Sequence record: MT596505.1
DNA length: 64,000 bases
Source: Staphylococcus phage vB_SepM_BE08
Strand: one strand, 5' to 3'
Part shown: piece after piece, positions 3,090 through 48,939 of the stretch
Layout of the letters: each line of letters begins with the position of its first letter
Position numbering within the stretch: the first letter of the stretch is position 1
Notes under the pieces: generated by a model
What the model saw: only the letters and a program-made list of their open reading frames with translations
What the model was told of the DNA's origin: nothing
Database searches by the model: none
Position numbers and translations under genes: made by a program

Positions 3090-5744
3090 TTATTTAATTT
3101 CTACTAAACTTATTTTATTAATCTTAAGTGCTTCATTTATATTAGAATCTGTATATATTTTTACAGATTCATTTTTTCTAATAGAAGTTGTTTTAGCTGT
3201 AAATTCTTTTTCCAATAATCCTTGTGATTTGTCAATCTCTGCTGGATAGAATACTACTTCACTCATACCTGTGTTTGTATTTACAACGTTAACTGTTGTT
3301 ACTTCTGGTGATAATTCTCCTAAAATAGTTACTTTATATTTATGTCCGCTTATAATAGGTTGCTCTAGCTCATATTTAGCTCCGTTTATATAAGATACTA
3401 TCTGAGGTATATTACTATCTTTCAATATATTTACAGTTTCCCTAGGTGCCAAACTTATTTCAGTTTCAAAGAAATTAACTTTAGGATTAGTATCTACATA
3501 ATAACTTGAATCTGTAAATTGTAACTCAGATAACTCATCTAATGTTCTAGCTGAACCTAATCTTAAATCTTCTACATATTTAAGTTTAGAATAATCAATA
3601 TCATCTAATGAAGTATACGTATTTATATCTAATACAGTAGATTTAATAATTTCTCCACTTGATGAATCTATAATACCGTTGTTAGTGTCACTAATAACTT
3701 TTAATGTATCTAAGATTACAGAATACTCAGTATCCATATTAGTCCATAATGCATTAAAATAACCTATAGGCATAGTACTTACATTTTTCTCCCCTATTAA
3801 ATCTCTAATAGGAATTGTATTAATAGAACTTAAGAGAACTTCTGACATAGGTGTTATATCTGAGTAATTTACAAATTTAAGTCCATATAAATCTACTACT
3901 TTATTAGATATGGTTGTTTCTACCTCATTATCCTTTGAGTAATCTATTTTAGTTACAGTTTCCCAGTTCTTACCATCTTCAGAAATCATAATGTATAAAT
4001 CAGGATTAGGTGCATGCGTCACTTCAATTTTAAAATCTTGTATGTCAGTTCTAACACCGTTAAATTTATATATCTTCTCTATAAGGTTGTGCTTATCTGT
4101 ATCTACATTATATCCCTGTCTATACTTTTCTTCAATAGAAGAATAGCTACTTATAATTATAGAGTGCTCTAAATTATTTATATAACTATTTACTGTTTCA
4201 GTATCAGTTAAATACTTAGAGTTTCCATAGATTTCTTGTGGATTTAAATCAATACTCTTATTATCTGTAACTTTTATATACTGCACCTTTTTGTATGATG
4301 GTTGTGATATTATATCTCCATTAGTAGGACTAAATACTTTATAAGCTTCTACATAAAACATACTTTGAATTTCATCATAAAGTTTAACTACAGGAGTATA
4401 AGGATGTATTGTATATACTCCTGGTTCATAATGGTAGAATACCATATCTAAATAGTTTATGTCAAGTGTTACTTCATCATCGTAACCATAAACTTGTAAT
4501 CTAGTAAACATATTTAAATCATCATTTAAATAATCATTTAAATAACCTATACTAAAATCATAATCTTTCTCATAAAAAGAAACAGAATCATAATTTATTG
4601 TATTCCATCTATTTCTATCAAAATCATATATTTGTAGAACAATATTAACGTAATCATTTGGTGGTAAGACAGCTTTCAATGTTAATTTAAAATCAACCTG
4701 ACCTATATAATCAGAAGTCTCTCTTTTAGTTTTGTTTAATAGTACAGGTTTTGTTTTGAGTAAATACTCTCTTATATTAAAATTATTATAAATATACTCT
4801 ATACCCGTATTAGAATTAAATGTTACAGGTATACTAACATTATTTTTTTCATTAGTGTGTAAATAAAAATCAGTACTTAATTCTTCACTTTTATTTTTTA
4901 ATTCTGAAATTATATTTGCTACGGAAGAATTATATTGTGGTGTGTAATTATATGAAGACTTAATACTAACATTATTAAATATTCTCCCTACATTAGAAGA
5001 ACCCGTTAATACGTCTTCACTATTGATTAAACTTTTATTATTAATAAATACAGATTTATAATTAAGACTATCTGTTTTTCTTAATCCTAAATTAATATGT
5101 CCGTATAATAATTCATCATACCCATAGAAATTGGTAATATCTTCATACATTTCTACTTTCATGCTACCATTTAACCATTGATATATTAAGCTACCGTTAT
5201 TAGTAGCCCCGCCATCATAAGTTACATACAATTTAACTCCAGCTGGTTTAAATTCATTTATAATATCTATAATCTCTAAAGGGAAATAATTACCTATTGT
5301 AACATTAATAACTGCAAATCTATAATAGTAACCCATTAATTTGTCATTGCCATTTAATTCAGATTTATTAGTATAAAAAATATTTTTAAATGGTTCATAG
5401 ATACTAATATTAAGGTCATCTCTATCTAAGTAATACTTAATACCTTCAATAATAGCATTATTCGTACCTCTTTTTAAAAGTAAGTATTTAATGATTCTTT
5501 GTCTATATTTATCATCTTCCTCATCTACTTTACGATATACACCAAACCAATCTCCAAATTTATCTAAATACGTTCCTGTAGCACTTTTTAAAGAAGATTG
5601 TAACTTACTCTCAATTGTATCTCTCTCTACCGTATTTAACTCTTCATTTAAAGTGTTTAGTAGTATATAGTTTGTATCTTCATTAAGATTTTTATCTTTT
5701 TTTCTTCTTAATAATGGATGTAAGTTTTTCAAAAAACTACTCAA
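3090..5744 (-). CDS. large baseplate / tail-fiber-like structural protein (884 aa)
   Basis: Long, Asn/Tyr-rich ORF in the baseplate region, downstream of a baseplate-J-like gene. This is typical of myophage baseplate-attached fibre or wedge proteins. Confidence 0.5.
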   Translation of the reverse strand: MSSFLKNLHPLLRRKKDKNLNEDTNYILLNTLNEELNTVERDTIESKLQSSLKSATGTYLDKFGDWFGVYRKVDEEDDKYRQRIIKYLLLKRGTNNAIIEGIKYYLDRDDLNISIYEPFKNIFYTNKSELNGNDKLMGYYYRFAVINVTIGNYFPLEIIDIINEFKPAGVKLYVTYDGGATNNGSLIYQWLNGSMKVEMYEDITNFYGYDELLYGHINLGLRKTDSLNYKSVFINNKSLINSEDVLTGSSNVGRIFNNVSIKSSYNYTPQYNSSVANIISELKNKSEELSTDFYLHTNEKNNVSIPVTFNSNTGIEYIYNNFNIREYLLKTKPVLLNKTKRETSDYIGQVDFKLTLKAVLPPNDYVNIVLQIYDFDRNRWNTINYDSVSFYEKDYDFSIGYLNDYLNDDLNMFTRLQVYGYDDEVTLDINYLDMVFYHYEPGVYTIHPYTPVVKLYDEIQSMFYVEAYKVFSPTNGDIISQPSYKKVQYIKVTDNKSIDLNPQEIYGNSKYLTDTETVNSYINNLEHSIIISSYSSIEEKYRQGYNVDTDKHNLIEKIYKFNGVRTDIQDFKIEVTHAPNPDLYIMISEDGKNWETVTKIDYSKDNEVETTISNKVVDLYGLKFVNYSDITPMSEVLLSSINTIPIRDLIGEKNVSTMPIGYFNALWTNMDTEYSVILDTLKVISDTNNGIIDSSSGEIIKSTVLDINTYTSLDDIDYSKLKYVEDLRLGSARTLDELSELQFTDSSYYVDTNPKVNFFETEISLAPRETVNILKDSNIPQIVSYINGAKYELEQPIISGHKYKVTILGELSPEVTTVNVVNTNTGMSEVVFYPAEIDKSQGLLEKEFTAKTTSIRKNESVKIYTDSNINEALKINKISLVEIK

Positions 5745-12723: not shown

Positions 12724-15330
12724 CTAATATATAAAGTGATAATTTCCCTTAGGTAGACTACTTACTTTAAGCGTTCTCTCACCATAAGTATGGTAAGCTG
12801 AATAATTATATTCAGATATATGGATTGTTTTACCATCTTTAGAGACACCTTCTACAAAAGCAACATGACCTGTTCCGTGGTCTCCACTTTTGTAAGCTTC
12901 CCAGTTAAGAATAGCACCACGTTTAGGTGTTGTTCCTACACCTATACCCTGTGCTCTGGCGGCGTTGTCGTAATTATGAGCATCACCCCACGCTCCACAG
13001 GAAAGCCCAAACTGTTTACGTCTATTATATACATACCAAGTACATTCACCTACTAAACCACCTACTTGTGGATTTCCTGGGTAAGTTTTCTTATCCCACT
13101 TAGGTAAATCACCTTTGTACTTTTCTAATTTTTTAAGAGATTCTCCTCCACTAGCGTCTCCTCCTTCATCATCTCCGCCACCATCTTTACCTTTATTTTT
13201 TTCAGCTATGGCTTCTGATTTCATGTCTGCTAGTGATTTCTCTCCTAATAAACCACCAATAAAGTCTGAAGATTGTCCCCAAGGTGGAGCAAATCTAACA
13301 GGACTTCCGTCTGGTACTTCAGCTTCTTTAAGTCCTCTAGTTACTCCTATAGTTGTATAATAACCTTGTTTGTAATCAAATTTATGTTCTACTGATTCAA
13401 TGTAGAATTCCCAGACATCATTACGTTGTTCATCTTTAACAAACAATCGTTTTCCTAAATCATACTTGTGGTGTCCTAAAACAATTATATCTCCTGAATA
13501 GAAGTTAGGATTATTGTAATACCAATTATAAAGCATTTTACTAAATATCAACATAGGACTATCTGTAGCATCTGCTCCTACATCTGCACTAGCATTACTA
13601 ATTTCCTCTAATGACTTAATGTAATCTTTATATATCTGGTCGTCAGGAGGTGTTCCTTTATATTCCATATATTTTTCTACAAGTTTTTCAGCTTCTGCTT
13701 TACTACCGAATCTAAAGTTATTTGCTAAATCATCAATAGCTTTTTTCTTATTCTTTTTACCATCTTCACCTTCAAAAGATTTATTATCAGAGAAGTGTTT
13801 TTTAAGTTTCTCTTTAAGCTTAGGTACAGTAGCTATAGGTCTATTGTCTATTTGTTGTTCTGTTCCTGGATTATGACCTGTAACTTCTTTATACTTACTT
13901 TCAGAGATACTTCCAGTTTTTGAAAATTCTGCTACTAATTTTTTAGCTTGGTCTTTAGTTAAATCATGGTATCTACTAGATAGTATTTTAGCCCAACCTT
14001 CTTGTTTTGCATTTACTTCTTGTTGTCCTTGGTTTTTAAGGTCTTTTAATACTTTATCGTAAGTACCTTTTTGAGCTCCAGCATCTCTTTTATCAATAAT
14101 CTTTTTATAATCTTCTTCACTTAGTTTACCATCTTTTGAGAATTTGTCAACTATTTCTTGTGCATTTTCTTTCGTTAATCCTTTATATTTACTAGCTAAC
14201 TTTTTAACCCATTTATTTTTTGCTTTTGATACTTTATCTTTACCTTCTTTTTTAAGGTCTTTCATTACTTTATCATAAGATTCTTGTTCATCTCCAGCAT
14301 CATTGTTATCATCTTCTGTAGATGAGTTCTCTTCAATAGGTATATACATATTTTCTACTTCTAATTTAGAATAACCATATCTATCAACAAGCTCTTTATG
14401 ATATTGTGGTTTAGAAAATACATCAGCTTCCATTGTTTTAAGCATTTGTGGTGTTGTAACTGTAAAAATAGAATATGTCTCTACATCAGATTTACCTACA
14501 TCTTCTTCTACAAAGTCTTCAGAACTTACTGTCTCATAATCTAAAGCTTTCCATTGAGATTCATTAAAAGGTGTCTTACGCATAACTAATTGTGTTTTAT
14601 CAGCGTTTTTATCTTGACCGTTTCTAAAGAATAATTCATTAAATGGTTTAGCTGTAATCATATCCATCATTTGTTTTAAACTACCATCAAAGTTAGTTAA
14701 TTGAGTGGTATCTTTAAGATTTTCAAATGCAGTCCAGCTATCTAAACCATCCCAAGAAAAATGGTCGGATATAGTCTTATTATGGTTACCTTTACCATCA
14801 TCGTACTTATATCTCATAAATGGTATAAAATAATCTAATACCTCTTTCATTATTTGACTAGCATTAGAACCACTAAATTTTATTTTCTCACCATCTACTA
14901 ACCAACCTGTTGCTGGTAATACAGCTTGAACCTCTTGGATTACACCTAATCCAAATTTAATAAAAGGTTTAGAGAAAGCTTGACCTGTTATTCTATATGT
15001 GGTTTGGTCGTTGCTGTAACTTCCTATTTTAGATACTTGAGAAATCATACCTACTAATACTAGTCCTTCTTTATCATCTGCTGGATTAGGATTAATATAA
15101 ATCTTAACAATATCATTAATCATTAAAGCTTTATCCCAATTTGTATCTCCTGCTAGAGTAATGACAAAAGTAGCACTATCATCTGACATAGCATTTTTAG
15201 TTTGGAAACCTAGGACTTTATTTCCTACTTGCTCTCCTGTAACTTCTACAGCATTACTATATCTTAAAGTAAATATATTTTCATCTGTAACGAATTCTAA
15301 TCTTATATCAGGTCTTCTTATCCTTTTCAT
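12724..15330 (-). CDS. tail-associated murein hydrolase with a C-terminal CHAP peptidase domain
   Basis: The C-terminal ~130 aa carry a CHAP-like Cys-His pattern (GLVGECTWYVYNRR ... GHVAFVEGV ... HISEYNY). Its size and position after the tape-measure and transglycosylase genes match the virion-associated CHAP lysin of K-like phages. It also contains an internal ~55-aa tandem duplication. Confidence 0.8.
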   Translation of the reverse strand: MKRIRRPDIRLEFVTDENIFTLRYSNAVEVTGEQVGNKVLGFQTKNAMSDDSATFVITLAGDTNWDKALMINDIVKIYINPNPADDKEGLVLVGMISQVSKIGSYSNDQTTYRITGQAFSKPFIKFGLGVIQEVQAVLPATGWLVDGEKIKFSGSNASQIMKEVLDYFIPFMRYKYDDGKGNHNKTISDHFSWDGLDSWTAFENLKDTTQLTNFDGSLKQMMDMITAKPFNELFFRNGQDKNADKTQLVMRKTPFNESQWKALDYETVSSEDFVEEDVGKSDVETYSIFTVTTPQMLKTMEADVFSKPQYHKELVDRYGYSKLEVENMYIPIEENSSTEDDNNDAGDEQESYDKVMKDLKKEGKDKVSKAKNKWVKKLASKYKGLTKENAQEIVDKFSKDGKLSEEDYKKIIDKRDAGAQKGTYDKVLKDLKNQGQQEVNAKQEGWAKILSSRYHDLTKDQAKKLVAEFSKTGSISESKYKEVTGHNPGTEQQIDNRPIATVPKLKEKLKKHFSDNKSFEGEDGKKNKKKAIDDLANNFRFGSKAEAEKLVEKYMEYKGTPPDDQIYKDYIKSLEEISNASADVGADATDSPMLIFSKMLYNWYYNNPNFYSGDIIVLGHHKYDLGKRLFVKDEQRNDVWEFYIESVEHKFDYKQGYYTTIGVTRGLKEAEVPDGSPVRFAPPWGQSSDFIGGLLGEKSLADMKSEAIAEKNKGKDGGGDDEGGDASGGESLKKLEKYKGDLPKWDKKTYPGNPQVGGLVGECTWYVYNRRKQFGLSCGAWGDAHNYDNAARAQGIGVGTTPKRGAILNWEAYKSGDHGTGHVAFVEGVSKDGKTIHISEYNYSAYHTYGERTLKVSSLPKGNYHFIY

Positions 15331-25636: not shown

Positions 25637-27421
25637 TTAGGCTTGTAATGCTTGTTGTTTATAAACAAGACTTACAGAAATTTTCTTAATGCTTCTGATA
25701 GGGTAAATAGTTAATGAGATTCTAGCTTCTTTACCTTCGATAATAACTTGTACATCTTCTGGTGGGAAGTCTTGAATTTCATTGTCACGTTTCTTACGTT
25801 CTAGGTAAGAGATTACAAAGTCTTTCATAATTGAAGCACTTGTATTAATTGTTCGTGTACCAATGAACTCATCTTCTAATTCTCTCTTCAATTCAGAAAC
25901 TAAGAAGTCATTAGCTTCCCCTACAGCCATTTCTGACTTAATAGGGTCAGACATGTCATTGTAAGTAGTTACGTCTTCTACAATACGGAAGTTTGTAACA
26001 GTTCTATTACGAACAAACTCGATACTAATAATACCATTTTCATTTAATTCATCTAGGTCAGTAGAATCATAAATGTTATCTAAACCATTGACATGCAAGT
26101 GTTTAAATGTAATTGATTCTCCGATACCTAAACCTGAAGCTAGACCTGCTACAGCACTTGCTACCATGTAAGCTGGTGCATGCAATTTACGACCATTTTC
26201 CATACCTAAAGTAGCACTGTTAGCGATTAGAGATACTCGAGGATTCATTAATGAAGAAGCTCTTCCATAAAGTTTTTCTTTATGTTCTGCTATTCCTCCA
26301 CCTACTATAGCTCTCATAGGTTCCCCTGCATCTGAACGTTCTCTAACAAAGTGAGCTACTTCTGCATGTACAGATTCACGAGAAGATAATGGTACGATAT
26401 AGTATCCACCTAAGTGAGCAAATTTCTCGAATTTATCAGCCCAGCTTGTAGGCTCTTCTCCGTTAGTACCACCTTCAAGTTTAGTTAACTCGAAAGGTTC
26501 AATAGTTTTAAATTTTGCACCTTCTTCTGTTGTTGCTGTTACTGTGGCATTGTCTTCTCCAGCATCTACTGTTACATCACTTGAATTAGATACGTCTTCT
26601 GGTACTCGTTCAAAATGAATTAAACCATTATATTCAGTTTGTTTTTGTAAGTCACCAAAAATAGCTGTTACATAAGCACCTTTATCTGTAACATCTAAAT
26701 CTTCTACTGGGTCAAGTAATGTACTTTCAATGTTTTTATCTCCAAAAGGTGATAACTTAGCTTCAAAGTCTGGTAGTTGATTAATATCCGTAATAACTTC
26801 GTTAGTGTATTTATATAAACCACCACTTAGGTCATACGATTTAACAACATTATCTCCAACTTTTAATACTAGACTTTCAGCTTTTTGTGTTTCATCATCA
26901 TGGATTACAGAAACAGTAGCTTTAGGCTCTTCACCAGTATATTTAACTGTAAAGATATTACCAATGTTGTCATAAACTTCATTAAATCTGTCGTTTTCAA
27001 AAATCAAACGCAAACGTAATGATTTACTTAAGTTGTTTTTCTCTAGAGCTACTTGAATATTATTAGACGCATTACCGTAAATATCTGATACGATACGTAA
27101 ACCGCCTTTTTCAACAGATGCTGGCTTAGCGTCTTCTACACGCATTGCAAAAATTTGACCTGCTGTGTAGTTAGGATTAGAACCCCAAGCTAATTCAATA
27201 GCGTCTAAAAGCTCACCTGAACGGAAAGTACGTTTTGCTTGTGAATAGTTACGTAATTTATAAACTTGGTTAGGTTCCCCGCCTTCAGCTTTACCAATTA
27301 ACATTAAAGTTTTTTCACTGGCACTTGCTGAACCGCCGATACCTGATGAATCTACTTCAATAGTAGCATGAGGTCTCGTAATAGGTCTACGTGGGAATAC
27401 TTCTTTATAATCATTTGCCAT
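25637..27421 (-). CDS. tail sheath protein
   Basis: 594 aa, Gly/Ala-rich C-terminal half, in the position expected for the contractile sheath. Confidence 0.8.
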   Translation of the reverse strand: MANDYKEVFPRRPITRPHATIEVDSSGIGGSASASEKTLMLIGKAEGGEPNQVYKLRNYSQAKRTFRSGELLDAIELAWGSNPNYTAGQIFAMRVEDAKPASVEKGGLRIVSDIYGNASNNIQVALEKNNLSKSLRLRLIFENDRFNEVYDNIGNIFTVKYTGEEPKATVSVIHDDETQKAESLVLKVGDNVVKSYDLSGGLYKYTNEVITDINQLPDFEAKLSPFGDKNIESTLLDPVEDLDVTDKGAYVTAIFGDLQKQTEYNGLIHFERVPEDVSNSSDVTVDAGEDNATVTATTEEGAKFKTIEPFELTKLEGGTNGEEPTSWADKFEKFAHLGGYYIVPLSSRESVHAEVAHFVRERSDAGEPMRAIVGGGIAEHKEKLYGRASSLMNPRVSLIANSATLGMENGRKLHAPAYMVASAVAGLASGLGIGESITFKHLHVNGLDNIYDSTDLDELNENGIISIEFVRNRTVTNFRIVEDVTTYNDMSDPIKSEMAVGEANDFLVSELKRELEDEFIGTRTINTSASIMKDFVISYLERKKRDNEIQDFPPEDVQVIIEGKEARISLTIYPIRSIKKISVSLVYKQQALQA

Positions 27422-37313: not shown

Positions 37314-37805
37314 TTACTTATTATCTTCCATTAATTTCTCTTTTTCTTTTTTTAATTTTAACTCTTCTTCTTCTTTAATTCGTTGCTTTTCTTCGTAATT
37401 TTCTCTTAACATAAAGTTTAATCCTAATTGAACTTCATTTCCAGATAGTACATTACTCATATAAAAGTCTTCAATTACAATGTCACCTAAAGGAAGTGCT
37501 TTACCTTTTTTAACATCTTCTTTAATTTTCTCTGTATACTCATCTAAATTAAGACGTTTATTAAATGCAATCTCAAACATTTTATTATGATACTCACCTG
37601 TAAGCTCATCATTTAATCTTGTTTGGAATAATAACATATGTGAATCAAGTTTATTTGGTGGGTCTTGTCTAAACAAGTTTAAAGTCTCATACAGGGTAGC
37701 CATAAGTTTACAAGCTAAATCACTAAAATCCTGTAATGCTTTTTCTTTTTCTTCACCCCTAATAGGTGTAATAGATTCTTCTAATGTTAATGTATTTTTT
37801 TCCAT
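37314..37805 (-). CDS. hypothetical protein with an acidic coiled-coil C-terminus
   Basis: 163-aa ORF. Confidence 0.35.
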   Translation of the reverse strand: MEKNTLTLEESITPIRGEEKEKALQDFSDLACKLMATLYETLNLFRQDPPNKLDSHMLLFQTRLNDELTGEYHNKMFEIAFNKRLNLDEYTEKIKEDVKKGKALPLGDIVIEDFYMSNVLSGNEVQLGLNFMLRENYEEKQRIKEEEELKLKKEKEKLMEDNK

Positions 37806-37818
37806 AATAAATCTCCTT

Positions 37819-37983
37819 TTAATTTAATAAATCTTTTATATCTTTTTCTATTGATTTTAGTTCTCTTGCAATATTAATTTCATAAATTTTACTTTTTTCT
37901 CTTTTATAATAAAACCTAATATCAATTAAAATAAATAGTATAAGTAAAACAGTATAGACAATAAAATTAAACAAAAACATCAT
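37819..37983 (-). CDS. small membrane protein (54 aa)
   Basis: MMFLFNFIVYTVLLILFILIDIRFYYKREK...; below the ORF-track size cutoff. Confidence 0.3.
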   Translation of the reverse strand: MMFLFNFIVYTVLLILFILIDIRFYYKREKSKIYEINIARELKSIEKDIKDLLN

Positions 37984-38770
37984 TATCACCTACAAAATTT
38001 TGAACTTCTTTTTTAGTCATTAAATATCTATCTTTAACTTTTTTAAAACCTAGATAATCTATATAATTAATAGCTTCTTTTAATTGTATATCATATATAG
38101 ATATTGCCATTTCATTATCTATACCTAGTTTTATAAGTTCAAATATAGAACGTAATCCTACTCCGCTAGATTCTGGTGAACTAATATATGATTCTAATTT
38201 TATTTCTTTGTCATATAAATTATATTCTGCTATACCTATAACATCCTCACCGTTATTGAATACTTTATAAATAGAAGATGTTTCTTTTAAATGAGATGTA
38301 TTTACACCTTTATTTTTAAGTATAGACAAAGATGTAGCTAATCTTTCTGGATTTACTTTTTCATTTATACCACCATTATCTTCAACTGAAGAACCTATAG
38401 CTGAGTTATTATTAGTTTCAGGTTGTTTATCTTGTTGCTCTTTATCTTTTGAATTTCCGTCTTCGTAAATAGTCATTTCTACTTCTTTGCCGTTTCTAAT
38501 TACTTTACGTTTAACTTTATTCAAATTAGATAAATCTTTATCTCCGCCTTTGGTTATTTTTTCAGTATTTGATTTACAAAACAATACCATATCATAAAAG
38601 CTATTAAAACCATTTGGTTTGTATAAATGTTTATATTTTTTGTTTAATGTTTCTTCGTTATTAATAACTTCATCAAAACTAAAATATTTACCTGTAAGAA
38701 AGTATAGATTATTTTCATCCATACTTTCATTATCTTTTTTCATTATATCATAAATAAACTCATTTGTCAA
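37967..38770 (-). CDS. hypothetical protein
   Basis: 267-aa ORF downstream of terminase exon 3. Confidence 0.35.
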   Translation of the reverse strand: MTNEFIYDIMKKDNESMDENNLYFLTGKYFSFDEVINNEETLNKKYKHLYKPNGFNSFYDMVLFCKSNTEKITKGGDKDLSNLNKVKRKVIRNGKEVEMTIYEDGNSKDKEQQDKQPETNNNSAIGSSVEDNGGINEKVNPERLATSLSILKNKGVNTSHLKETSSIYKVFNNGEDVIGIAEYNLYDKEIKLESYISSPESSGVGLRSIFELIKLGIDNEMAISIYDIQLKEAINYIDYLGFKKVKDRYLMTKKEVQNFVGDNDVFV

Positions 38771-38783
38771 ATTAAATCACTAC

Positions 38784-39702
38784 CTAATCTATATAATAGT
38801 TTGTATTACTATTTCCTGAATTATAATTAGTAGTAACAAAAGTAGAATTAAACGCTGTACCATTTCCTTGTTGTATTAACTGTTGTATTCGTGTTAATCC
38901 GATATTTGCATATACACTTGCCTGTGCCCAGTGGTCGTCACCTTTACGTTTAATTACTTGATACATTTCTTCTTTTTTCTCGTCTTCCTCATCCATAATT
39001 AAAACATTTTGCCAATGTTTTAAATATGTTCTAAGGTCATCATCTACTTCTTGATACATACGTATATTTTTTGTTTTTAGTCCTTGGATATAAATCTTAT
39101 TTTGCATAAGCTTATCAACAGTTACCGTATTATCTTTTTCATTAAATTTAGGTCGTAACTGTCCTGTAGAACGTGGACTGGAATTGTAAGTACATCCAAA
39201 AACTTTATCTTCTCCGAAATGGTTTATAAGTTTTAGGACATTATTACCGCTATCCCCATTATCTGCTATAATAATGTCTGGTTCATATTTAGAAATTTCC
39301 CATATAATTGTTTCTAAATCAGCTTCAACCATATTAGGTCTTGTGTTTTTCTTAACAGAAAATAATCTTATTAAATCTTTTTTACCATCAGGCAATACAC
39401 CGTGAACTGTAACCCAGTGGTGATTTCCCCAATCAATTCCTACAGAAATATAAGAATAATTACCTCTGTTAAACATTTGTTTTTTAGCAACAGGTGATTT
39501 ATTTTCAAATACATCCTCTTCAAGAACACGCATTTTAACATCTTCATAAGGCATACCTAAAGAATAGTTATAAAATGCTTGCTTAGAATCTGTGTTCATT
39601 TCTTTTTCTACTAATTGGTCTGCTGAAATCCATACAGCGTTCATTTGAGATATATAATACCCTCTAATACCTGAATTATTTTTTGTTCGTTCAGGGTAAC
39701 GA
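38784..39702 (-). CDS. terL: terminase large subunit, exon 3 (nuclease domain)
   Basis: The frame stays open upstream of the annotated Met (…RYPERTKNNSGIRGYYISQ-MNAVW) with no start codon. The predicted 3' splice site follows GGGUAGUAAUUGGGGAAUG, which parallels intron 1. Confidence 0.7.
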
Positions 39703-44573: not shown

Positions 44574-44577
44574 AGGC

Positions 44578-44605
44578 TAACTTATGTTAGTCTTTTTTTA
44601 TATAT
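44578..44605 (+). terminator. rho-independent terminator
   Basis: Hairpin GGCUAAC-UUAU-GUUAGUC followed by U7. Confidence 0.45.
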
Positions 44606-44680
44606 CTATTATACCATAAACATCTTGAATATTAAAATTAAACTATCTCAATTTCCAACACTACTAAATATTAATTATTT

Positions 44681-44856
44681 ATTGTTAATATATTTATTAT
44701 TAATAATTAGTATTAGTATATATAAATATATATATATTAGAGTAATCCTTATTTTCCAAATATACAAATTACCTAAATATTCAGAATTCTTTTTCCTTAT
44801 ATATAAATATTGTTAATATATTTGTTATTAATAATTAGTATTAGTATATATAAATA
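44681..44856 (+). repeat. AT-rich intergenic region with two ~49-bp direct repeats 128 bp apart
   Basis: ATTGTTAATATATTT(A/G)TTATTAATAATTAGTATTAGTATATATAAATA at 44681..44729 and 44809..44856 (1 mismatch). Each copy is followed by CTTATTT(T/G)CCAAATA. Confidence 0.7.
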
Positions 44857-44961
44857 ATAGTTATTAGAACTGGTCTTATTTGCCAAATAGTTAAAAAAAC
44901 CTCTAAAACACTTGATATTAAAGGATTTTAATCAAAAATTTAAAAAAGTTTATAAAAAGTG

Positions 44962-44990
44962 TTGACATTTATCAAAAATAAGATTATAAT
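44962..44990 (+). promoter_or_regulatory. near-consensus sigma-A promoter: TTGACA, 17-nt spacer, TATAAT
   Basis: Preceded by AAAAGTGTTGACATT; the same upstream context recurs at 52081 and 52835. Confidence 0.6.
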
Positions 44991-45031
44991 AAACTTAACA
45001 ATAAAAAATTAAGAAAAGGATTTGATTAAGT

Positions 45032-45253
45032 ATGAGAAAACAAGTAATGGTATATTCAAAACTAAATTGTAAAGAATGTGGGAACCACTTTATGGTTCCT
45101 AGAAAAAGAGCAAAAAGAAGAGAAGAAGGTCATATCAAAGACTTATATTGTGTAAAATGTAAAAAAACAACAAAACATATTGAGGATAACAGAAGTGAAA
45201 CAGAAAAATTCTGGGATGAATTCCATTCAAATAGAAAATATCAAAAAAATTAA
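45032..45253 (+). CDS. zinc-ribbon protein
   Basis: CKECGNH ... CVKCKK pattern; 73 aa. Confidence 0.45.
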   Translation: MRKQVMVYSKLNCKECGNHFMVPRKRAKRREEGHIKDLYCVKCKKTTKHIEDNRSETEKFWDEFHSNRKYQKN

Positions 45254-45283
45254 TAAAAAATTTAAAAAAGTTTTAAAATAAAC

Positions 45284-45312
45284 TTGACACAGGGTTATTT
45301 TTATGTTATGAT
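45284..45312 (+). promoter_or_regulatory. sigma-A promoter: TTGACA, 17-nt spacer, TATGAT
   Basis: Drives the downstream ORF-free structured region. Confidence 0.55.
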
Positions 45313-45318
45313 ATATGT

Positions 45319-46135
45319 ATCAAATAAAACAAATCCCTTACACAACTGTTTTTTCATTACGTTGTTTTCCAGTTCAAACAATAACAGCGTTTGCCTATAA
45401 CTAATGATTAGACTATAAACAAATCAAGAGGAAATTAGTCTATTCCTCTAATATAATTTTAATACAACTAAACATCTGAACATAGTGACTGAATAAGTGA
45501 GTGATGTCACTAAGGTGTAAGAATGTCTTAGGAAGCCTACTAAAGTGTGAGAACCTTTAGAGGTATCCTCAGAGGGATATTTATTCCGAAAGGATTGCTT
45601 AGCACTTGGATATAAGGATTATACGGTAGAGAGACTATCAGTGATGAATCACTAGTCAAGGTCTTAGCGGAATCTTGACTAGTTACGCTACTAAAATCAT
45701 TTACGTGGTTGGAGCCTAGAAATAGGTTTGATAATGATTGTCTTTCGTACAAGTAGCACAAACCCACGATAAAGCTAAAGAAAACAAAAAATATATGTTA
45801 TTTTAATTCTTCACATCGTGTGAAAGTTGGTAAGTAACTGTCCTTACCCCTATACTGTGGAAACACTCATAAAAGTGGACTATGGCTAGCTACCATATAG
45901 AACTTTCTATGACTAGGTTACCTAATAATAATTCTTATATTTTAGTTCCCTGTGAAAAGGGCTATGTTTGGATATTTAGTTGTATTATACAACTAACTTC
46001 TCTTTCATTTTATTATTCTTATCAATGGTTTTTGACTCCTTTACCATTGATAGAGAGAAACCCCTTATAAGAACATATTCATTTGTACAAACAAACACCT
46101 CCTTATAAAAAACAAAAAACTTATAAGGGGTTTTT
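45319..46135 (+). ncRNA. large (~0.8 kb) structured non-coding RNA candidate
   Basis: Promoter-to-terminator unit with no plausible ORF. Local GC is well above the genome background, and there are many perfect hairpins (for example CACUAGUCAAGG...CUUGACUAGU, AGUGAUgaaAUCACU, UAUCCucagagGGAUA). Confidence 0.55.
46061..46135 (+). terminator. terminator-like element ending the ncRNA
   Basis: CCCCUUAUAAG ... CUUAUAAGGGG (11-bp stem) followed by UUUUU. The loop is unusually long (48 nt). Confidence 0.4.
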
Positions 46136-46240
46136 ACATACACATAACCCTAATAACCTGAATATAATTTGCTTGATATTTATATTCAAAAAAAAATAAG
46201 GTAAGTACTTTTTAAAGGTTTTTGTCTCACCTATACATAA

Positions 46241-46606
46241 ATGAAAAAAGGAATTGTTATTGTGGCAAAGAAAAAAACATTAGCTCAAAAAACATATGAA
46301 GATACAGTAAAAGCTAGAAGATGGTTTGCAGGTACTCGAAATGAATTTAATACAGCAAGAGCAAAAAAGAAAAATACTGAAGCTTTTTTAAAACAATCAA
46401 AAGAAGATATTAAAACAGCTAGTGAAAAAGGTAGATTTAGTTGTATATTGTATTATAAAGTATTTAAGTTTAAAGAACCTGTAGAAGGGTATAATAAACA
46501 AGAAATATTATCAGCACTTAAAGAGTTGGATAAAGAAGGATTTAAAACAACATATGAGGATACTCAAGATGGTGTATTAGTGAGTGCTAGATGGGATAAC
46601 GAATAA
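46241..46606 (+). CDS. hypothetical protein
   Basis: 121-aa ORF. Confidence 0.4.
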   Translation: MKKGIVIVAKKKTLAQKTYEDTVKARRWFAGTRNEFNTARAKKKNTEAFLKQSKEDIKTASEKGRFSCILYYKVFKFKEPVEGYNKQEILSALKELDKEGFKTTYEDTQDGVLVSARWDNE

Positions 46607-46918: not shown

Positions 46919-47482
46919 ATGTCTAATAAAGATATGAAAAAACCTACTGTTGTAGGTGGTGTAAACTTATCCACACGTGTACGCAGTAAGACTTTTTGGG
47001 TATCACTTGTAGGTATACTAGTTGGTGTAGTTACTCAAGTAGGTACACTTTTTGGTCTTGATTTAGAAGACCAAGTAGGACAATACTCTGAATTAGCTAC
47101 AGGTATTATTACAGCTTTAGGTATTTTAGGTGTTTTACAAGACCCTAATACTAAAGGAATTAAAGATAGTGGTATTGCACAAACATACACTTCTCGTAGA
47201 GATAGTAAAGACCCTGAACAAGCAATAGATTGGCAAAATAATACAGAATTTGATTTAGGTGTAAAGAAACCTCAAGAGTTTGATACTTCTGAATCTTTCT
47301 CTGATGATAGTGATGAAGAAGAAGTAGATTTAGAAGAAGAAGAAGTAGCTAAAGATGATTCTGTACAAGAAGACACAAATAAACCCCTTGGAGCTGGAAA
47401 AGGAGAGTCTGTAGACTCTATGAAAAACACACCTCTAAATGTAGGTAGTCAATCAGCTAAATCAAAAGGCGGTGAAAAATAA
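46919..47482 (+). CDS. holin
   Basis: 187 aa, two N-terminal TM helices and a long acidic C-terminus. Its stop is 2 nt before the endolysin start. Confidence 0.7.
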   Translation: MSNKDMKKPTVVGGVNLSTRVRSKTFWVSLVGILVGVVTQVGTLFGLDLEDQVGQYSELATGIITALGILGVLQDPNTKGIKDSGIAQTYTSRRDSKDPEQAIDWQNNTEFDLGVKKPQEFDTSESFSDDSDEEEVDLEEEEVAKDDSVQEDTNKPLGAGKGESVDSMKNTPLNVGSQSAKSKGGEK

Positions 47483-47484
47483 TA

Positions 47485-48939
47485 ATGAAAACTAAAAAAC
47501 AAGCTTTAAAATGGATTTTAAATACTATAGGTCAAGGTATAGATTGGGATAAAATGTATGGGTTTCAATGTATGGATTTAGTTGTTGCTTATTTGTATTA
47601 CGTTACTGACGGAAAAATAGCAATGTGGGGAAATGCTATTGATGCTCCTAAAAATAATTTTAAAGGTACTGCTAAAGTAATTAAAAATTACCCTGCTTTT
47701 AGACCTGAAGAAGGAGATATAGTAGTTTGGTCTTATGGTAATTTTAGTACTTACGGACATATTGCTGTAGTTATAGATGGAGACCCTTACGGTGACTTGC
47801 AATATATCACAGTAGCTGAGCAAAATTGGAATGGTTTAGGACTATACAAACAAGAAGTTACTACAAAACGTATTCATAATTACGATGGTGTATCTCATTT
47901 CATAAGACCTAAGTTCAAAAAAACAGTTAAAAAAGAAGATAACACTCTTACAAAAGAAAAAAACAACAAAAAAACAAAAGGAAAAAAATTAAAAGTATCA
48001 ACACAAAGAATAAACTACACTATGGATAAAAGAGGTTATAAACCTAAATTTGTTGTAATACACAATGATGCTGGTAGTTCTTCTGCACAACAGTATGAAC
48101 AAGGATTAAAAAATGCAGGATACAGTAGATATGCTCAAGGAGTAGCACATGCATACGCTTCTGATGGTTATGTGTGGGAAGCAATATCAGAAGATAGAAT
48201 AGCTTGGCATACAGGCGATGGAACAAACCCAGGAACAGGTAACTTTGAAGGATATGGAATTGAAGTTTGTCAATCTTTAGGAGATAGAAATACTTTCTTA
48301 AAAAATGAGCAAACTGTATTCCAATTTATTGCAGAAAAATTGCAAAAATGGAACTTACCTGCAAATAGAAATACCATCAGACTTCATAATGAATTTATAC
48401 AAACAGAATGTCCCCATGCTTCAGCATATTATCATGCAGGTATGAATACTAAAGTAGATGCTTATACAAAAGAAAGACAATTAAAAATAAAAGATTATTT
48501 CATAAAACAAATTAGAGCATACATGAAAGGAAGTACACCTAAATCTACAGTAGTAAAATCTAGTAAAAATAGTGGTTCTTTACCTAAGAAAAAAGGTAAA
48601 AAACAAAAATTTAAATCAAATATTGGTAAAACATTCGACTTTAATGGATTAAATACCAATACTTGGGGTACTAAATGGTATTATGAAAATAATACATTTA
48701 CATGTAATGCTCGACAAGGTATCATAACAAGAGTAGGTAGTCCGTTTACAAACGCACCTCAAGCAGGTGTTTTATTCTACGGACAAACTGTAACATATAA
48801 TCAAGTAGCTGTTAATCCAAAAGAGCCATTTGTATGGATTTCATGGATTACAAATAATGGTACTGAAGTATGGATGCCTATTGAAGTCTTAGACAGTAAT
48901 AATAAAATTATTGAGCAGTGGGGTACTTTTGGTTGGTAA
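47485..48939 (+). CDS. endolysin with CHAP, amidase_2 and SH3b domains (LysK/PlyTW type)
   Basis: N-terminal CHAP (QCMDL ... GHIAVV ... EQNWNG), a central N-acetylmuramoyl-L-alanine amidase region (VVIHNDAGSS, H ... E ... H) and a C-terminal SH3b-like region. The ORF is continuous, with no intron. Confidence 0.9.
   Translation: MKTKKQALKWILNTIGQGIDWDKMYGFQCMDLVVAYLYYVTDGKIAMWGNAIDAPKNNFKGTAKVIKNYPAFRPEEGDIVVWSYGNFSTYGHIAVVIDGDPYGDLQYITVAEQNWNGLGLYKQEVTTKRIHNYDGVSHFIRPKFKKTVKKEDNTLTKEKNNKKTKGKKLKVSTQRINYTMDKRGYKPKFVVIHNDAGSSSAQQYEQGLKNAGYSRYAQGVAHAYASDGYVWEAISEDRIAWHTGDGTNPGTGNFEGYGIEVCQSLGDRNTFLKNEQTVFQFIAEKLQKWNLPANRNTIRLHNEFIQTECPHASAYYHAGMNTKVDAYTKERQLKIKDYFIKQIRAYMKGSTPKSTVVKSSKNSGSLPKKKGKKQKFKSNIGKTFDFNGLNTNTWGTKWYYENNTFTCNARQGIITRVGSPFTNAPQAGVLFYGQTVTYNQVAVNPKEPFVWISWITNNGTEVWMPIEVLDSNNKIIEQWGTFGW

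Follow-up and report, generated by a model that had tools for sequence, protein, structure and literature searches.

This study examined a stretch of 64,000 nucleotides (nt) from Staphylococcus phage vB_SepM_BE08 (sequence record MT596505.1), hereafter referred to as the window. It belongs to a Sepunavirus (Twortvirinae, Herelleviridae) that infects Staphylococcus epidermidis, and it shares 99.4% identity with Staphylococcus phage phiIPLA-C1C. Between the gene for a basic zinc-ribbon protein and an open reading frame (ORF) that is followed by the holin and endolysin genes lies a region, 45284-46135, which public records leave unannotated or fill with short 'hypothetical proteins' that disagree between records. 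This region comprises a promoter, P1, a leader, a structured core and a 3' tail that ends in a terminator-like element (Table 1). A preliminary description, made from the sequence alone, had proposed that it encodes a structured non-coding RNA of about 0.8 kb, possibly of the ROOL or GOLLD class. A large structured RNA was indeed revealed by covariation, but it occupies a core of about 0.53 kb and not about 0.8 kb or the whole 815 nt. We propose that this core, located at 45460-45988 on the plus strand, is a divergent ROOL-family RNA and the Sepunavirus ortholog of the Kayvirus long non-coding RNA (lncRNA) lncRNA2, a reading to which we assign a probability of about 85%.

The limits of the core are apparent from a cross-species BLAST comparison, in which query positions 679-705 matched the reverse complement of positions ~177-202 in other phages. 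These matches revealed a long closing helix, which delimits the ~529-nt core. An alignment of 25 orthologs was used for the analysis of the fold, covering Sepunavirus, Twortvirus, Sciuriunavirus, Kayvirus, Baoshanvirus and unclassified Twortvirinae, and thus at least five genera. In this alignment, the closing helix has 23 consensus pairs, 11 of them with compensatory changes, and is paired in 99.5% of the cells. Over the whole core, RNAalifold predicted 127 consensus pairs, 75 of which show at least one compensatory double change. Standard pairing was found in 98.4% of the predicted pair cells, compared to 37-41% in slid controls, in which the partners were shifted by 1-3 columns. The covariation score was 0.504, compared to 0.06-0.08 for the slid controls, and none of 500 shuffles reached this value. 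The blastn search that had been suggested as a check found the region in 276 Twortvirinae records. The stem-loops that had been noted are also reflected in the folding energy, as the core has a minimum free energy of -154.5 kcal/mol (z = -6.2 relative to shuffles). However, covariation is the stronger evidence for structure. Several invariant G.U pairs would become C.A if read on the other strand, which identifies the plus strand as the RNA strand. That the ~529-nt core is a multi-domain structured RNA across at least five Twortvirinae genera is strongly supported.

Table 1. Features of the RNA locus of the Sepunavirus window and of the neighbouring genes
Feature	Position	Strand	Remarks
73-aa basic zinc-ribbon gene	45032-45253	+	Upstream neighbour of the RNA locus; own consensus promoter at 44962-44990
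Promoter P1, sigma-A type	45284-45312	+	TTGACA-17-TATGAT, TG ahead of the -10; 11/12 consensus matches
Leader, outside the ROOL-like core	45319-45459	+	~140 nt; first ~75 nt conserved
Leader hairpin	45359-45390	+	Stem ACGUUGUU/AACAGCGU, conserved loop UUCCAGUUCAAACAAU
Second leader hairpin	45428-45450	+	AGAGGAA/UUCCUCU; Sepunavirus-specific; from folding
ROOL-like structured RNA core	45460-45988	+	~529 nt; boundaries from nhmmer and alignment
Closing helix, 5' arm (equivalent to ROOL helix P1)	45460-45485	+	Pairs with 45962-45987; ~26 bp
Central domain	45628-45770	+	Long hairpin with invariant apex GGUCUUAGCGGAAUC; also GAUAAU and GUACAAGUAGCACAAA
GAAA-tetraloop hairpin	in central domain	+	AGCCUA-GAAA-UAGGUU
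Pseudoknot-like pairing	45704-45708 with 45764-45768	+	CGUGG with CCACG; covaries
Linker-bridging helix	45756-45759 with 45818-45821	+	GCAC with GUGU; switches C-G to U-A
A-rich linker, length-variable	45769-45806	+	Large indels between genera
P18-like hairpin	45881-45897	+	Stem covaries; loop C-UAGCUA at 45886-45892, self-complementary centre
Closing helix, 3' arm	45962-45987	+	From reverse-complement BLAST and covariation
3' tail	45988-46135	+	Sepunavirus-specific; unconserved outside Sepunavirus
UACAACUAA	45988-45996	+	Repeats part of the closing-helix 5' arm
Tail hairpin	46020-46052	+
Terminator-like stem	46061-46071 with 46120-46130	+	CCCCUUAUAAG with CUUAUAAGGGG, then U5 at 46131-46135; Sepunavirus only
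121-aa ORF	46241-46606		Downstream of the RNA locus
Holin gene	46919-47482		After the 121-aa ORF
Endolysin gene	47485-48939		After the holin gene

With regard to the class of the RNA, the comparison with ROOL was made in both directions and at the level of the fold. ROOL RNA (Rfam RF03087), reportedly described by Weinberg et al. in 2017, is one of the few natural RNAs known to build a protein-free cage. When the core was submitted on its own (45440-46010; 571 nt, a length at which the search filters are laxer), RF03087 matched it over its full length, with model positions 1-574 aligned to 45466-45978, a score of 65.8 bits and an E-value of 5.9e-13. Full-length matches were also obtained for the phage K core (36.5 bits, E 8.7e-6) and for an RNA of the Listeria phage A511 (87.5 bits, E 3.5e-18). 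The scores are thus continuously graded, from canonical ROOL through A511 and Sepunavirus to Kayvirus.

For the reverse comparison, two covariance models were built from staphylococcal sequences only. Model R1, which represents the central domain and was searched without filters, matched Silviavirus StAP1 with 120.8 bits and A511 with 75.4 bits (E 5e-17), the latter within a 660-nt gap between the tRNA-Pro gene and gp59. With a motif that the staphylococcal RNAs share with those of Listeria phages, 24 new viral contigs were retrieved, and R1 matched 17 of them. An Rfam scan at the gathering level was carried out on 11 R1-matched loci, and ten were called ROOL, in the same places as the R1 matches and with 152-362 bits. 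At the uncalled eleventh locus (L046), the R1 match is cut off at the locus end. The canonical ROOL loci found via R1 are surrounded by transfer RNA (tRNA) and transfer-messenger RNA (tmRNA) genes. Model R2 represents the 3' domain, and its target loci had not been chosen on 3'-domain features. R2 gave matches in two canonical ROOLs (loci L051 and L048), both in the collinear 3' region, whereas seven decoy loci gave none.

The consensus pairs of ROOL were mapped onto the window core via its Rfam alignment and compared with the fold described above. Of the 122 mapped pairs, RNAalifold had independently predicted 63. Over the 25 orthologs, 75.9% of the cells of the mapped pairs are paired (37-45% when slid), and compensatory changes occur in 62 of the mapped pairs (11-24 when slid). 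The ROOL helix that bridges the linker is among those that covary.

The agreement in fold and conserved motifs extends along the entire ROOL covariance model. In addition, the size is similar (~530 nt here and 574 nt in the model), and both RNAs exhibit a closing helix P1, nested long-range helices and a central domain with a GAAA-tetraloop hairpin. The sequence UGYAG-UUGRA-(GAAA hairpin)-AUAA...GUAYAAGUAGC.CAAAUCURCA is common to the core and canonical ROOLs, as are UUCU..GUGAAAGUU and GGUAA. The pseudoknot pairing UGYAG/CURCA is likewise found in both and covaries. The A-rich linker, which is variable in both RNAs, aligns to the ROOL linker loop, where ROOL has its disordered, non-conserved linker, and hairpins resembling P18 and P19 of ROOL are present. 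A location in phages and, as known for homologs of the window RNA, a very high abundance complete the resemblance. Differences from canonical ROOL are the longer closing helix, the longer loop palindrome UAGCUA of the P18-like hairpin (UCGCU in canonical ROOL), the strictly lytic host phage and, in Sepunavirus, the absence of tRNA genes nearby. To these are added a score below the cut-off, which is lost under default search filters, and two hairpins fewer.

Within the central domain, the pairing of CGUGG with CCACG crosses another helix and hence forms a pseudoknot. Helix 13 of the RNAalifold prediction (A1 columns 238-241/258-261) is considered wrong, as it shows no covariation and clashes with this covarying pseudoknot. 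As read from the Rfam alignment, the P18-like hairpin appears to be equivalent to P18/L18 of ROOL. The centre of its loop is invariably GC, with flanks that vary: Sepunavirus has UAGCUA and Sciuriunavirus UUGCAA, Kayvirus shares AGCU with A511, and Twort shares UCGCU with canonical ROOL.

GOLLD (RF01998), the other class named in the preliminary description, is also a large ornate phage RNA, which is often found beside tRNA genes, rises during lysis and forms a nanocage (PMC12286853). However, GOLLD is larger, at about 800 nt, and folds in an unrelated way. Core-only scans of the window, phage K and A511 gave no GOLLD match at E-values up to 10. The proposal of ROOL or GOLLD is therefore upheld for ROOL only, by the forward, reverse and fold comparisons.

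Several observations weigh against the assignment to ROOL. An Rfam scan of the whole window at the gathering level yielded no ROOL or GOLLD match, and neither did a scan of a 1.6-kb slice (44800-46400) with E-values up to 10. The ROOL scores of the window, K and A511 are all below the curated gathering cut-off of 99.1 bits, which is an operational limit and not a structural feature, and that of K is the lowest. The ROOL hairpins at model positions ~109-135 and ~220-232 are absent from the window, and several of the mapped ROOL helices (4, 9 and 18-22) pair poorly, which is at least partly due to the imprecise alignment of a single sequence to the model. The E-values of R1 are optimistic, given that the loci had been pre-selected with a motif from the domain that R1 itself represents, and R2, with two weak matches, offsets this only in part. 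No tRNA or tmRNA gene is present in the 64-kb window, unlike in typical ROOL contexts. In the literature, no transcript data were found for Sepunavirus, the RNA sequencing (RNA-seq) paper on SEP1 being silent on the region. Finally, ROOL was found to be non-essential in one bacterium, and its function is unknown (PMC12286853).

The silence of the Rfam scans of the window and of the slice is an artefact of filters and threshold. The match of RF03087 to the window surfaces only if less than ~600 nt are submitted, and it is filtered out of the 1.6-kb and 64-kb scans. No gathering-level ROOL was reported in the loci of K, Twort, ZCSS1, BS1, A511 or StAP1 either. For the first four of these loci, the three tRNAs of K, which served as a positive control, were the only matches reported. 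The preliminary description had recommended a plain cmscan and had counted the lack of an Rfam hit against itself; taken at face value, the empty result would have led to its wrongful rejection. As routine Rfam scans drop divergent A/U-rich ROOLs, the family is probably under-counted in phage genomes.

The low scores, their bias terms of 18-24 bits in the window, K and A511, the two missing hairpins and the poorly pairing transferred helices could also be explained if the RNA were a structured class of Herelleviridae alone, whose resemblance to ROOL would stem from a shared A/U-rich composition and from a few motifs, among them a GNRA hairpin and an A-rich linker, that arose by convergence. 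We regard this as improbable. The alignment to ROOL is full-length and collinear, with E-values from 1e-5 to 1e-18, and canonical ROOLs were retrieved by models of two separate domains. The compensatory pairs in the transferred fold and the continuous gradation of the scores also argue against an independent class. Homology of the core to ROOL is, in our view, very probable.

A second alternative is that the RNA acts in cis, as a 5' untranslated region or processing scaffold for downstream tRNAs in Kayvirus or for the lysis-proximal ORFs in the window. This would be in line with the position of the Kayvirus RNA, which directly precedes tRNA-Asp/Phe/Trp on the same strand, with that of the A511 RNA, which follows tRNA-Pro, and with the lack of a canonical terminator after the core of phage K (PMC11598898). 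Nevertheless, the downstream neighbours vary by genus and include tRNAs, the 121-aa ORF, the holin gene and an lncRNA1-like sequence. The RNA of phage K is far more abundant than the tRNAs that follow it (PMC11598898), and the window has no tRNA. Moreover, the terminator-like hairpin and a separate promoter-like site at 46139-46168 separate the RNA of the window from the next ORF. A cis-acting leader is thus even less probable than a class of its own.

As had been claimed, the region has no credible ORF. The ORF list of the window contains only short ones here, and none is conserved in position, strand or length when the longest ORFs of the 25 orthologs are compared; a 75-aa ORF on the minus strand is restricted to the window's own subclade. 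Neither a conserved small ORF nor a tRNA, which had been mentioned as other possible reasons for the conservation, was found. Although several GenBank records annotate short hypothetical proteins and a putative AT-rich origin lies nearby (44574-45031), it is very unlikely that the conservation is due to small coding ORFs or to a DNA element, for instance an origin of replication or a site for packaging. No ORF is conserved, the substitutions preserve helices and often involve G.U pairs, which the opposite strand would read as C.A, and the homologs are massively transcribed (PMC7698491, PMC11598898). The GC content of the core is higher than that of the window (35.0% vs 29.1%), as had been noted, but 'markedly' was an overstatement: the core lies at the 90th percentile of 529-nt windows, and leader and tail have only 27-28%.

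The divergent ROOL-family RNA of the window has orthologs whose transcripts are known. In phage K, the blastn match lies at 38008-38806 on the minus strand. A paper on phage K describes an lncRNA at 37679-38832 that ranks first by read count and has its own early promoter; Kayvirus lncRNA2 is lnc002 in Table 1 of this paper (PMC9241854). A second study located a read peak of 543 nt at 38,024-38,566 (PMC11598898). This peak corresponds to positions 3241-3783 of our K locus (L003) and falls inside the structured core at 3216-3798, on the assumption of a common coordinate system, which holds for neighbouring features. Together, lncRNA2 and lncRNA1 account for 27% of the reads (PMC11598898). The homolog in vB_SauM-515A1 represents 8.4-9% of the counts, and the Kayvirus homolog is reported to be driven by a typical early promoter (PMC7698491). 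Three RNA-seq studies thus place Kayvirus lncRNA2 among the most abundant phage transcripts (PMC7698491, PMC9241854, PMC11598898).

The window RNA and Kayvirus lncRNA2 share their position, downstream of the gene for the zinc-ribbon protein 'Iro', as well as promoter P1, the leader and the fold, at a sequence identity of about 66-70%. An intrinsic terminator after the leader, a second promoter, P2, before the core and downstream tRNA genes are found in Kayvirus but not in Sepunavirus, and some Kayvirus members also have an extra hairpin of ~36 nt. Sepunavirus has its own 3' hairpins and terminator instead. The Kayvirus authors likened their lncRNA to GOLLD and ROOL on the basis of its abundance and its position near tRNA genes, without a test of structure or homology, and our literature search found no paper giving a structure or a ROOL homology test for lncRNA2.

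The other abundant Kayvirus transcript, lncRNA1, showed no similarity to the ROOL-like RNA when searched with nhmmer and model R1, nor did the window yield a homolog of lncRNA1. Its 3' end, beside tRNA-Met (L037 833-969; K ~13,632-13,768, minus strand), resembles DUF3800-I RNA with 43.4 bits, the cut-off being 44.2. In Baoshanvirus BS1, an lncRNA1-like piece lies immediately 3' of the ROOL-like core.

The RNA of the Listeria Pecentumvirus phages belongs to the same RNA family as the window core. In A511, it is located at 26,196-26,747 (L038 2565-3116), in the unannotated gap after tRNA-Pro, which holds a ROOL-like RNA in all 53 Pecentumvirus records. It coincides with a hyper-abundant non-coding region of the P100-like phage CKA15, 26,236-26,727, which a multi-omics study reported as the most abundant transcript by far; it accounts for 7-34% of all transcripts and, at 40 min, for about 67% of the phage reads (PMC12282133). 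The A511/CKA15 RNA differs from that of the window in gene order, being preceded by tRNA-Pro and followed by the zinc-ribbon gene, and it is nearer to canonical ROOL. The Kayvirus orthologs of the window RNA likewise adjoin tRNA genes.

The authors of the CKA15 study proposed a small interfering RNA or a Y RNA (PMC12282133). No Y RNA match was obtained for the Listeria homolog, as the A511 RNA had no significant match to any family but ROOL. A tRNA-like element, as a Y RNA module, was not found in the window. On the 3' side of the A511 RNA lie the phrog_1257 zinc-ribbon gene and genes for a TROVE/Ro-like 'RNA-binding protein', an HD phosphohydrolase and an RtcB ligase. With regard to homologs in the host or other bacteria, a scan of genome contigs with a 19-base motif gave six chance-like matches, none of them in Staphylococcus.

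The near-consensus promoter of the preliminary description is well founded, as promoter P1 is kept in every aligned Twortvirinae genus and ortholog, and the homologous site in phage ISP carries a promoter annotation. It would place the transcription start near 45319. The AT-rich region shows no general enrichment of promoter-like sites, with 15 present where 16 would be expected.

The leader hairpin motif occurs once in the window, and its stem is compensatory between genera in the alignment, with ACAUUGUU/AACAAUGU in K and ACGUUGUU/AACAGCGU in the window. Across genera, the loop has the consensus UUCCAGUWYAAACAAU. In Baoshanvirus BS1, a motif resembling that of the leader sits downstream of the core. 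In Kayvirus-like phages, a strong intrinsic terminator closes the leader (K: L003 3030-3165) and the consensus promoter P2 immediately precedes the core. Given this terminator, the leader of Kayvirus-like phages might constitute an independent small RNA (~120 nt). No such second promoter was accepted in the window, where only a -10-like TATAAT (45453-45458) was found before the core, without a -35 and not aligned with Kayvirus P2. As Sepunavirus has no P2, transcription would read through from promoter P1 into the core.

The terminator-like element at the end of the region had been recognized correctly, although it is confined to Sepunavirus. A simple terminator scan missed its stem because of the large loop. 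The 146-nt tail has a folding z-score of -5.3. At the junction of core and tail (45976-45996), Sepunavirus alone has the sequence UUAGUUGUA-UUA-UACAACUAA, in which the 3' arm could pair with UACAACUAA as an alternative to the closing helix.

How a ROOL-type RNA might work in this phage can be outlined from its homologs. As in these, the RNA would be expressed from an early promoter, accumulate through infection and become one of the most abundant phage RNAs, while the long closing helix would protect or define the ends of a stable species of ~0.53 kb. A discrete, stable RNA of ~0.5 kb is likely to exist in this phage. Given the length of the closing helix and the fact that the K read peak ends within its arms, one may speculate that the helix is processed by RNase III.

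The cryo-electron microscopy structure of ROOL env-120 shows an octameric cage of D4 symmetry, built from flat monomers that are joined by A-minor contacts and kissing loops. The non-conserved linker lies in the interior of this octamer, and L18 contributes a symmetric kissing loop between monomers, bridge B6 (PMC12286853). By analogy, the window RNA might form an RNA-only homo-oligomer, in which the A-rich linker would face inward and the P18-like hairpin would hold the cage together in part by a symmetric kissing loop. In Sciuriunavirus, A and U are swapped at both symmetric loop positions and the palindrome is kept, as would be expected of a symmetric intermolecular contact. This is indirect evidence of self-assembly and represents a single evolutionary event. 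We consider the chances of a homo-oligomeric assembly to be about even.

Such a cage might enclose or sequester a component of the translation or RNA metabolism of host or phage, but any specific cargo or target that could be named is unlikely to be the right one. Also unlikely is a wider scenario, in which the ROOL-like RNAs of Herelleviridae would represent a functionally specialised branch, hyper-abundant and driven by early promoters of strictly lytic phages. Their cages, assembled via the extended P18-like palindrome, would trap either a defence sensor or a host component involved in translation or RNA repair, and the zinc-ribbon protein might take part in this. If true, this would amount to a phage-built 'RNA organelle' for an efficient takeover of the host.

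It was already known that the Kayvirus ortholog is an abundant lncRNA, said to resemble ROOL and GOLLD. As far as we could find, the covariation-backed structure, the demonstrated link to ROOL and the placement of the hyper-abundant RNA of Listeria P100-like phages in the same family are new. The unexplained lncRNA2 of therapeutic Kayvirus phages and the RNA of P100-like biocontrol phages are thereby tied to ROOL. The family also gains about 330 phage genomes in which the RNA is unannotated, 276 of these records being from staphylococcal phages and 53 from Listeria phages. ROOL-type RNAs can hence form a large share of the RNA of an infected cell. For phage therapy, one of the most abundant RNA products of phages in use is identified. 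Since the RNA is present in engineerable lytic phages with their hosts (K, SEP1, A511/P100), for some of which time-course RNA-seq has been published, the function of ROOL becomes testable through the phenotype of deletions.

The product of the neighbouring zinc-ribbon gene corresponds to phrog_1257 and is annotated as 'ribosome associated inhibitor A; zinc finger' or 'Iro'; no Pfam family was found above threshold. The gene adjoins the RNA in all staphylococcal genera compared and in Listeria A511. The zinc-ribbon protein was rejected as a general partner of ROOL, as no homolog was found near any of 15 canonical ROOL loci and the zinc-ribbon gene of Bacillus phage B5S has no adjacent RNA. The link is thus limited to this phage family. 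Upstream of the zinc-ribbon gene, the window contains an extremely AT-rich intergenic stretch (44574-45031; 16% GC). In phage K, the untranscribed region of lowest GC content has been proposed as the replication origin (PMC9241854), and the stretch in the window matches it by position, which makes it a putative origin.

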